The notes below the pieces were generated by a model, which saw only the letters and a program-made list of their open reading frames with translations, ran no database searches and was not told the origin of the DNA. This document shows, piece after piece, positions 501 to 540 of a stretch of 1,593 bases of DNA. Positions within the stretch are counted from its first letter, which is position 1. Each line of letters starts with the position of its first letter. This stretch comes from Escherichia coli (GTDB lineage Bacteria > Pseudomonadota > Gammaproteobacteria > Enterobacterales > Enterobacteriaceae), in the NCBI RefSeq assembly GCF_024223415.1, contig NZ_CP100509.1, one strand, 5' to 3'. A program made the position numbers and the translations under genes.

Positions 501-540
501 TGGGTGTAAGTGGGTGGGGTTGGGAGGTTTTGGGTTACTG
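501..540 (+). repeat. Four tandem decamers each starting with TGGG (10-bp phasing); G-rich plus strand
   Basis: TGGGTGTAAG / TGGGTGGGGT / TGGGAGGTTT / TGGGTTACTG at 501, 511, 521, 531. G-runs at 502-504, 512-514, 516-519, 522-524 and 532-534 fit a G3+N1-7 quadruplex pattern. Confidence 0.5.

Follow-up and report, generated by a model that had tools for sequence, protein, structure and literature searches.

Four TGGG motifs spaced exactly 10 bp apart on the plus strand of a small Escherichia coli plasmid, at positions 501-540 of the 1,593-nucleotide stretch analysed here (the window), form a pattern that is real and not trivially expected. Because the tract lies in a poorly conserved and naturally deletable spacer, however, it is probably a lineage-specific quirk and not a protein-binding repeat array. 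The reading that we favour is that of a passive, sequence-tolerant and unstructured GT-rich linker on the displaced strand, in which the TGGG phasing would be an accident of one lineage. We would class it as yet another G-rich sequence near a plasmid origin with the potential to form a quadruplex (G4), and not as a member of the iterons.

The exact 10-bp phasing claimed in the first-pass annotation is present as described, with TGGG starting at 501, 511, 521 and 531 of the plus strand; decamer by decamer, the letters from 501 read TGGGTGTAAG TGGGTGGGGT TGGGAGGTTT TGGGTTACTG. A fifth TGGG at 515, out of phase with the other four, had escaped attention. The G-runs had also been read correctly, as GGG (502-504), N7, GGG (512-514), N1, GGGG (516-519), N2 and GGG (522-524), and an additional GGG at 532-534 lies 3′ of this four-run pattern, bringing the runs of the tract to those that begin at 502, 512, 516, 522 and 532. 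An arrangement of any 4-mer repeated four times at period 10 appeared in none of the dinucleotide-preserving shuffles of 471-545, 390-545, 241-843 or the whole window, and any 4-mer repeated four times at any period from 5 to 15 appeared in only 0.02-0.36% of the same shuffles. Runs of at least three G are also in excess in the linker that contains the tract (six observed versus 2.8 expected from linker composition, p = 0.013), and the GG autocorrelation in the linker of the window peaks at 10. The description of 390-540 as GT-rich and C-poor holds (41% G, 26.5% T and 12.6% C, compared with 26.6% C in the whole window), and the composition of 501-540 itself is 52.5% G, 35% T and 2.5% C. The four decamers have 5-7 of their 10 positions in common, of which TGGG accounts for four, and the remainder is at the level expected from composition. 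Tandem Repeats Finder (minimum score 30) detected no tandem repeats, and a promoter scan found no promoter-like site anywhere in the window on either strand. There are no terminator-like sites in the tract, the only two in the window being located elsewhere, and an Rfam scan of the window returned only a meaningless sub-threshold miRNA match at 230-280.

The window is a complete 1,593-bp circular ColpVC-type rolling-circle plasmid with a Rep_1 initiator, since the open reading frame that runs off its end at 1593 resumes in frame at base 1 to encode 329 amino acids. The rep gene, on the plus strand, thus crosses the circular junction, with codons 1-250 at 844-1593 and codons 251-329 plus the stop at 1-240, and its product is 100% identical to the Rep of pB (NC_005002). 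It matches Pfam family Rep_1 (PF01446, the pC194/pUB110 family) with E = 1e-84, and the hallmarks of the family, an HUH motif and a catalytic tyrosine, are visible in the translation as HPHFHTLMM and KYSTKP. The window is 99.7% identical to 1,983-bp ColpVC-type plasmids such as Salmonella pB. The window is without ~390 bp of pB, a segment bounded in that plasmid by an inverted repeat of ~80 bp; the repeat flanks ~260 bp that are absent from the window, and a 15-bp hairpin just after rep (240-272, with no strand assigned) is its collapsed remnant. Relatives are present in 536 PLSDB records, spread over Escherichia, Klebsiella, Salmonella and Shigella. The family is made up of very common, cryptic 2-kb plasmids and serves as the ColpVC typing marker.

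Upstream of the tract is a lagging-strand origin (sso, ~326-460). Positions 296-460 align with the M13 intergenic region 5599-5760, that is, with the phage minus-strand origin, and we assign this function to them because of that homology, because both hairpins are kept by compensatory changes, and because the plus strand folds better than its complement. The sso is also homologous to the intergenic region of the Erwinia inovirus PEar1, and a homologue lies ~690 bp downstream of the IncFII repA in pSLT-type plasmids. The first hairpin (B-like, 326-389, plus strand), which falls within the M13 homology, has outer arms at 326-343 and 372-389 and an inner hairpin; five of its base pairs show compensatory changes, AAAATCG/CGATTTT being replaced by TAAATCG/CGATTTA and TGAATCG/CGATTCA. 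The second (C-like, 414-446, plus strand) is an inverted repeat, GGTGGTTGG...CCAACCACC, with an inner TCAC/GTGA stem. In 41 distinct relatives none of its nine pairs is broken, and compensatory changes at three positions turn GGTGGTTGG/CCAACCACC into GGTGGATGG/CCATCCACC and GGGTGATGG/CCATCGCCC. This hairpin aligns to the matching hairpin of the M13 minus origin, and that M13 segment, of 33 nt, is identical in the copy of the pSLT-type plasmid. A conserved 3′ tail (447-460, plus strand, CTGTAAGACGGTTTTTT) follows, and here the M13 homology ends; the sequence beyond the shared element is unrelated in M13, PEar1 and the pSLT-type plasmid, and the tract is outside the sso homology. An earlier view of the sso as a phage-G4-type primase site was replaced after direct alignment to the M13 minus origin.

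The likeness to the Ff phages (M13/f1/fd) extends to both hairpins, to the tail (CCTG-N-AGACGGTTTTT), and to the order of the origins on the strand that becomes single-stranded, with the minus origin a short way upstream of the plus origin. In M13, however, the plus origin lies within ~35-45 nt of the minus origin and the G-rich tract is absent, whereas the window has a Rep_1 initiator instead of gpII and an extra GT-rich insert of ~70 nt between the origins. By analogy with fd/M13 and the primer sequence of fd, RNA synthesis would begin opposite T448 and proceed leftwards. The M13 minus origin is primed by host RNA polymerase (cited in PMC7948647), and we infer by analogy that the window plasmid may be primed in the same way.

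The choice of the plus strand as the displaced one in the first-pass annotation was the right one. The M13-type minus origin is in viral-strand orientation and the G.T wobbles of its hairpins pair on the plus strand only, which together point to this strand as the displaced single-stranded DNA. It also has the better fold of the two (-65 kcal/mol, z = -3.3, versus -53 kcal/mol, z = -2.0, for the minus strand).

Downstream of the linker is the plus, or double-strand, origin (dso, ~566-613). Its core (566-606, plus strand, ATCTCGCGCGCGATCCTTGTATTTATACTTAAGGGATAAC) is near-invariant even where Rep identity is 68-69%, and a hairpin predicted at 578-613 of the plus strand has an ATCCT/AGGAT stem and holds the conserved nick region in its loop; in relatives GGGAT replaces AGGAT, and the resulting wobble still pairs on the plus strand. 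A remnant integrated in a 144-kb Shigella plasmid covers positions 247-593 of the window and stops directly after ...TTTATAC, an end point that suggests, on sequence grounds, that the nick is probably near 593/594. The Col(BS512)-type plasmids of Shigella and E. coli (L016), which we take to resemble pKYM itself, also have a Rep_1-family initiator (Rep ~69% identical). Their dso core is identical, and they have homologues of the sso and of the G-/T-rich linker, the latter 158 nt long, compared with 156 nt in the window. They differ in that their G-runs are 14-18 nt apart, without a canonical G4 motif or a 10-bp period. The replicon belongs with the pKYM/ColpVC-type enterobacterial rolling-circle plasmids. 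The plus origin of pKYM is reported to span 173 bp and to combine a core that binds RepK with an HU-binding enhancer downstream of it, not with an upstream repeat array (as summarised in PMC4439123).

The tract is part of a GT-rich, C-poor linker (461-545, ~85 nt, plus strand) that separates the sso from the dso, is hypervariable, and has no predicted Watson-Crick structure: 460-560 folded alone gives z = -0.18, and the centroid of the 296-660 fold leaves the linker unpaired. Variability was assessed in an alignment of the noncoding region from 17 relatives and ~100 loci recovered by a metagenome scan for the conserved origin core. Among 38 distinct long-class modules, column entropy is 0.54-1.16 in 466-565, compared with 0.3 or less in the sso stems and the dso core, and it reaches its maximum at 516-525, inside the tract. 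Among the 18 distinct modules of the window type, diversity per site is 0.078 in 501-540, 0.053 in the sso and 0.013 in the dso core; the variable sites within 501-540 all fall in 519-540, while 501-518 is invariant, and the whole of 461-518, including the first two TGGG units, is almost invariant within the clade.

Conservation of the 10-bp phasing in related plasmids, which had been put forward as a check, was not found, as the phasing breaks even inside the clade. A 1-nt deletion shortens the last spacing to 9 bp in L002, L068 and L035; L003, L038, L054 and L025 have lost the fourth TGGG; and L088, L049 and L107 diverge beyond the second TGGG unit. A loss of both phasing and G-runs in homologous replicons had been named as the outcome that would speak against the pattern; of the two, the phasing fails and the G-runs are partly conserved. 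The window-type tract occurs in 103 of 72,556 plasmid records, all of them from Escherichia, Salmonella or Shigella and 93 of them at 95% identity or more, so that, judging from the sequences compared, the 10-bp phasing and the G-run excess are confined to one shallow clade of these genera. Other linkers joined to the same sso and dso (L016, of the Col(BS512) type, L008, L009, L010, L018 and L028) are also GT-rich and C-poor and of nearly equal length (151-165 nt), and neither a G-run excess (p = 0.15-1.0) nor a 10-bp period is seen in the other homologous linker types. Across types of divergent sequence linker length stays within 151-158 nt, and this tight length, together with the recurrent GT-richness and low C, suggests that some constraint on length or composition may exist.

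Nature has also produced plasmids from which the tract is missing. In L011 a deletion of ~71 nt (~464-534), between short GTTG repeats, takes out the entire tract, and four complete plasmids of Salmonella and E. coli, all of which retain the sso and the plus-origin core, have the exact 71-nt junction with 100% identity, as do three gut-metagenome contigs. The Rep of L011, the one deletion plasmid in which Rep was checked, is ~95-95.5% identical to that of the window over residues 19-329. In another short class (L017, L053, L058 and L103), which arose in the Col(BS512)-type lineage, sso and dso are 85-90 nt apart. To judge by these natural variants, the plasmid can do without the tract; a dispensable tract is, all the same, not necessarily a functionless one.

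Taken as a passive spacer, the tract would be the 3′ half of a linker of ~85 nt between two origins, an M13/f1-type lagging-strand origin upstream and a Rep_1 (pC194/pUB110-type) plus origin downstream. During replication the plus strand would be displaced as single-stranded DNA, in which the linker would have no Watson-Crick structure and may simply keep the two hairpin-based origins apart, probably covered by SSB and at times perhaps folded into a G4. The replicon would not specify the sequence of the linker, and the phasing and the G-run excess would be a quirk of one shallow lineage. A number of observations run counter to an entirely passive role, among them the rarity of the phasing (found in 0.4% of shuffles or fewer) and the clustering of G-runs, the near-invariance of 461-518 within the clade and the constancy of linker length, the strand bias of T-runs and G-runs upstream of the same plus origin together with the pHW121 repeats (PMC2831885), and a G excess greater than mutational bias alone would give. 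As to this last point, strand-biased mutation (C-to-T deamination on the displaced strand) was considered as the sole cause of GT-richness and rejected: the four-fold sites of rep have an AT skew of -0.40 (T in excess of A) and a GC skew of -0.09 (G not in excess of C), and unrelated noncoding flanks average a skew of just ~+0.12. Deamination bias may contribute to the scarcity of C, without explaining 43-52% G.

The alternative that survives best, although we consider it unlikely, is that of a functional G4, in which a three-tetrad quadruplex beside the lagging-strand origin, formed on displaced or supercoiled DNA, would tune the biology of the plasmid, be it by timing or limiting the conversion of single-stranded to double-stranded DNA, by opening the plus origin ~55 bp away, or by signalling to a coupling protein. 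The claim that the G-runs fit a canonical intramolecular G4 motif on the plus strand is borne out at the sequence level: the expression (G3+N1-7)4 matches at 502-534 and 512-534 and nowhere else in the window on either strand, and the G4Hunter score, computed over 25 nt, peaks at 1.92 at position 510, the maximum for the window. The G4 prediction that the first-pass annotation had called for, a G4-aware DNA fold, gives a three-tetrad quadruplex of ~-10 kcal/mol, and this advantage is seen both in isolation and in context (ViennaRNA with DNA parameters: -9.6 kcal/mol with G4 allowed versus 0 without for 495-540, and -74.6 versus -65.0 kcal/mol for the 365 nt of 296-660). Since there are five G-runs, the L003 and L002 types, in which one run has been lost, still keep a predicted G4. 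The motif is thus canonical, lies on the strand that becomes single-stranded, and belongs to a cluster of G-runs that goes beyond composition. The G4-aware fold, on the other hand, predicts no G4 in the L016 and L008 linkers (two other types tested), which are joined to the same sso and dso, and gives a marginal prediction for L088; G4Hunter does not exceed 1.1 in the L008, L009, L019, L041 and L018 types. G4 potential is in this way limited to the window-type clade, with L088 as a marginal case, and is absent in the L016, L008, L009, L018 and L019 types and in the short class. Natural plasmids of window-type background, L011 included, exist without the tract, and the 'mobilizable' label assigned by MOB-suite does not track it. 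Moreover, the confinement of the tract to 103 records of a shallow clade leaves no depth in which selection could be shown. On these predictions a G4 on the displaced strand is plausible but non-essential.

Two other plasmids supply points in favour of a functional G4. The oriT of pIGRK, from Klebsiella, contains a G4 without which the plasmid is not transferred, and G4 DNA is bound by the coupling protein TrwB (PMC8152469). Both pIGRK and the window are small enterobacterial plasmids in which a G-rich tract with a predicted G4 adjoins a nick-dependent origin; in pIGRK, however, the tract is in a mapped oriT, whereas the window has no relaxase gene and no mapped oriT. In the Rahnella plasmid pHW121, of the pC194/pUB110 family, the putative origin is immediately preceded by GGGTTTT in 17 direct copies (PMC2831885). 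Compared by description, it resembles the window in being from Enterobacterales and in having a G-run/T-run tract with obvious G4 potential upstream of a Rep_1-family plus origin, the counterpart in the window containing GGTTTTGGGTT; it differs in that its repeats are a perfect tandem array of period 7, while the window has no tandem repeat. A scan of genome contigs for (GGGTTTT)4 gave more than 120 unrelated chromosomal matches, none with a Rep_1 homologue.

A wider version of this idea, which we regard as rather improbable, is that G-run/T-run tracts upstream of Rep_1 plus origins, on the nicked strand, are a family-wide and strand-specific accessory element that acts through G4. Its members would be the TGGG array, the G-runs of the Col(BS512) type, the TTTTGGGG-type metagenomic repeats and the (GGGTTTT)17 of pHW121. 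By resisting SSB, such an element might set the timing of RNA-polymerase priming at the phage-type minus origin next to it, or it might instead mark the strand for a conjugative coupling protein; in either case, as far as the G4 is concerned, the 10-bp phasing would be incidental. The same dso core is found in more than 100 metagenome contigs with ~43 unrelated upstream sequences. In these 42-43 sequences GC skew is positive in 33, motifs of the form T3+G3+ are found on the plus strand in 13 of 42 and on the reverse complement in 1 of 42, and G4Hunter reaches 1.5 on the plus strand in 6 and on the minus strand in none (n = 43), this last bias being also a point in favour of a functional G4 in the window.

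The suggestion that the TGGG units form an iteron-like array or one-face platform, on which Rep or a host factor would bind the four motifs on duplex DNA and aid the origin, finds no support in the comparison and seems very unlikely. It has in its favour the rarity of the exact 10-bp phasing in shuffles and the matching GG autocorrelation, the location of the tract ~55-95 bp upstream of the nick region, and the existence of true short direct repeats upstream of the same core in other lineages (GTTTGAGTG in the L082 and L015 types and three copies of GGTTTTGGGGTC in L121). Theta-plasmid iterons (pSC101, R6K, P1, F) likewise consist of repeats close to an origin, in approximate phase with the helix. 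Iterons, however, are units of 17-22 bp with high mutual identity that are bound by, and co-evolve with, their cognate Rep, and none of these features of unit size, identity or Rep co-evolution is seen in the tract. Instead of three or more direct repeats of high mutual identity, there are units that have only TGGG in common and that Tandem Repeats Finder does not recognize; instead of a conserved number and phasing of repeats, there are clade variants with 9-bp spacing or lost units, and five other linker types without a 10-bp period; and viable natural plasmids exist without the whole tract. Co-variation with the initiator is absent as well. The same tract is present in L006 and L007 despite Reps that are ~74% identical, while L008, with a Rep 94.5% identical, has its linker replaced, and L011, with ~95.5% identity, has the tract deleted. 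This independence from Rep identity indicates that the sso-linker-dso cassette evidently recombines as a unit between rep alleles. Origins of the pC194/pUB110 type, finally, are not known to need more than a short core, which also counts against an upstream platform.

Nor do we give much credence to a host-factor site, in which the conserved 5′ part of the linker, with a DnaA-box-like TGTGGATGA (490-498), would together with the adjacent G-runs recruit DnaA or another host protein and so assist priming or the opening of the origin. Within the clade, positions 461-500 hardly vary, TGTGGA(A/T)... followed by GGG(G)TAAG is common to the window, L010, L016 and L028 linkers despite their divergence elsewhere, and the Col(BS512)-type plasmids have a counterpart of the DnaA-box-like site, TGTGGAAAA. 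The match, however, is a weak one (8 of 9 positions of a degenerate consensus), and the site is deleted along with the tract in L011-type plasmids and absent in the short class. The remaining possibility, that of a rut site on the opposite strand that would load Rho and stop putative leftward transcription entering the lagging-strand origin, is extremely improbable, for although the complement of 471-545 has the C-rich, G-poor composition typical of rut sites (~43% C, 5% G), the scan shows no promoter-like site on either strand, and the non-conservation and natural deletion of the tract count here too.

As it stands, then, the tract matters little, being a lineage-specific, low-complexity sequence in a dispensable spacer, and its main value is in its context: a variable GT-rich linker connects a filamentous-phage-type minus origin with a plus origin of the pC194/pUB110 type, in a cassette of both origins and linker that moves between different rep alleles. 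Were a G4 to affect the single-stranded intermediate or mobilisation, these plasmids would be a simple study system, since the existence of natural variants with and without the tract makes G4 biology on bacterial single-stranded replication intermediates directly examinable.

A role of the tract as part of an oriT, hinted at by the MOB-suite label, was considered and rejected: L011, without the tract, is classed as mobilizable, and L007, with the tract, as non-mobilizable. The label probably reflects sequence in the ~390-bp segment of pB that is missing from the window.

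The lagging-strand origin of the plasmid (window 296-460) is homologous to the minus-strand origin of M13/f1 (150-345 in the M13 locus, L140), and the same element is found in the Erwinia inovirus PEar1 (L139, 1470-1650) and in Salmonella virulence-type plasmids, where it lies ~690 bp 3' of IncFII repA (pSLT-type locus L138, 2455-2630). In all, 993 plasmid records match this region. Sequences resembling phage origins also accompany the plus origin in a group of relatives (L015, L074, L082, L085, L100 and L121) that share the same Rep_1 plus-origin core, CCTTGTATTTATAC. About 100-150 nt 5' of this core, these loci carry a sequence similar to the nick hairpin of the f1/M13 plus origin (GAGTCCAC..TTTAATAGTGGACTCTTGTT), and short direct repeats, such as GTTTGAGTG, are likewise found upstream of the core in this group. 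The occurrence of nick-hairpin-like sequences and direct repeats in relatives with a Rep_1 core suggests that filamentous phages and these plasmids have exchanged origin modules repeatedly.

Exchange is also likely to have taken place between the origins and the initiator gene. Because two relatives (L006 and L007) have a cassette of lagging-strand origin, linker and double-strand origin that is at least 90% identical to that of the window, but a Rep that is only ~74% identical, the comparison implies that the origin cassette and rep have recombined. Diversity within the clade is highest just 3' of the double-strand origin, at 607-653, where it reaches 0.28 differences per site. The G tract (501-540) is present in nine large conjugative plasmids in total, and a 144-kb IncF/IncR plasmid of Shigella flexneri contains an integrated window-type fragment (L141, 2318-2654, equivalent to window 247-593) in which the lagging-strand origin and the G tract are followed by half of the double-strand origin. 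This fragment stops exactly after ...TTTATAC, at window position 593, an end point that is consistent with recombination at the predicted Rep nick site. In the record of one of the compared plasmids (L008, NZ_CP142412.1, 4018 bp), a ~2009-bp plasmid is present twice, head to tail, as a dimer, and both rep and a hypothetical gene occur in two identical copies. The record is either a multimer assembled as such or an assembly artefact.

The window itself is a complete circular plasmid (junction 1593/1), derived by a ~390-bp deletion from a 1983-bp plasmid of the pB/pVCM01 type. In the Salmonella plasmid pB (1073-1495 in locus L001), ~260 bp are flanked by a perfect inverted repeat of ~80 bp. In the window this arrangement has shrunk to a hairpin of 15 bp closed by a loop of 3 nt (240-272). 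The collapse may reflect either a genuine deletion mediated by the palindrome or an artefact of assembly.

Among all relatives, the distance from the end of the lagging-strand origin (CCAWCCACC) to the core of the double-strand origin falls into discrete classes of 85-90, 151-158, 165 and 256-291 nt, with ~66-70 nt separating the long class from the short one. In the common long class the length is held within 8 nt although the sequence turns over. The best-conserved part of this otherwise variable linker is TGTGGA..GGG(G)TAAG. At 490-498 the window has a DnaA-box-like sequence, TGTGGATGA, matching 8 of the 9 positions of TGTGNAWAA, and the homologous site in plasmids of the Col(BS512) type reads TGTGGAAAA, which matches the relaxed consensus in full. 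Positions 371-382 and 468-479 are perfectly complementary over 12 nt (CCGATTTTGTGA and TCACAAAATCGG), a pairing that would surround hairpin C (414-446) and compete with the 3' arm of hairpin B (326-389), making an alternative fold of the single-stranded origin possible. The complementarity is kept in the pB variant by way of a G.T wobble; Col(BS512)-type plasmids do not conserve it.

T-runs followed by G-runs are strongly strand-biased in the 150 nt 5' of the double-strand origin core of unrelated family members (loci L018-L137). TTTGGG occurs in 12 sequences and its reverse complement in 1, TTGGGG in 10 as against 0, and T3+G3+ in 13/42 as against 1/42; L121, for instance, carries three copies of GGTTTTGGGGTC. 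These motifs echo the (GGGTTTT)17 reported for the Rahnella plasmid pHW121 (PMC2831885).
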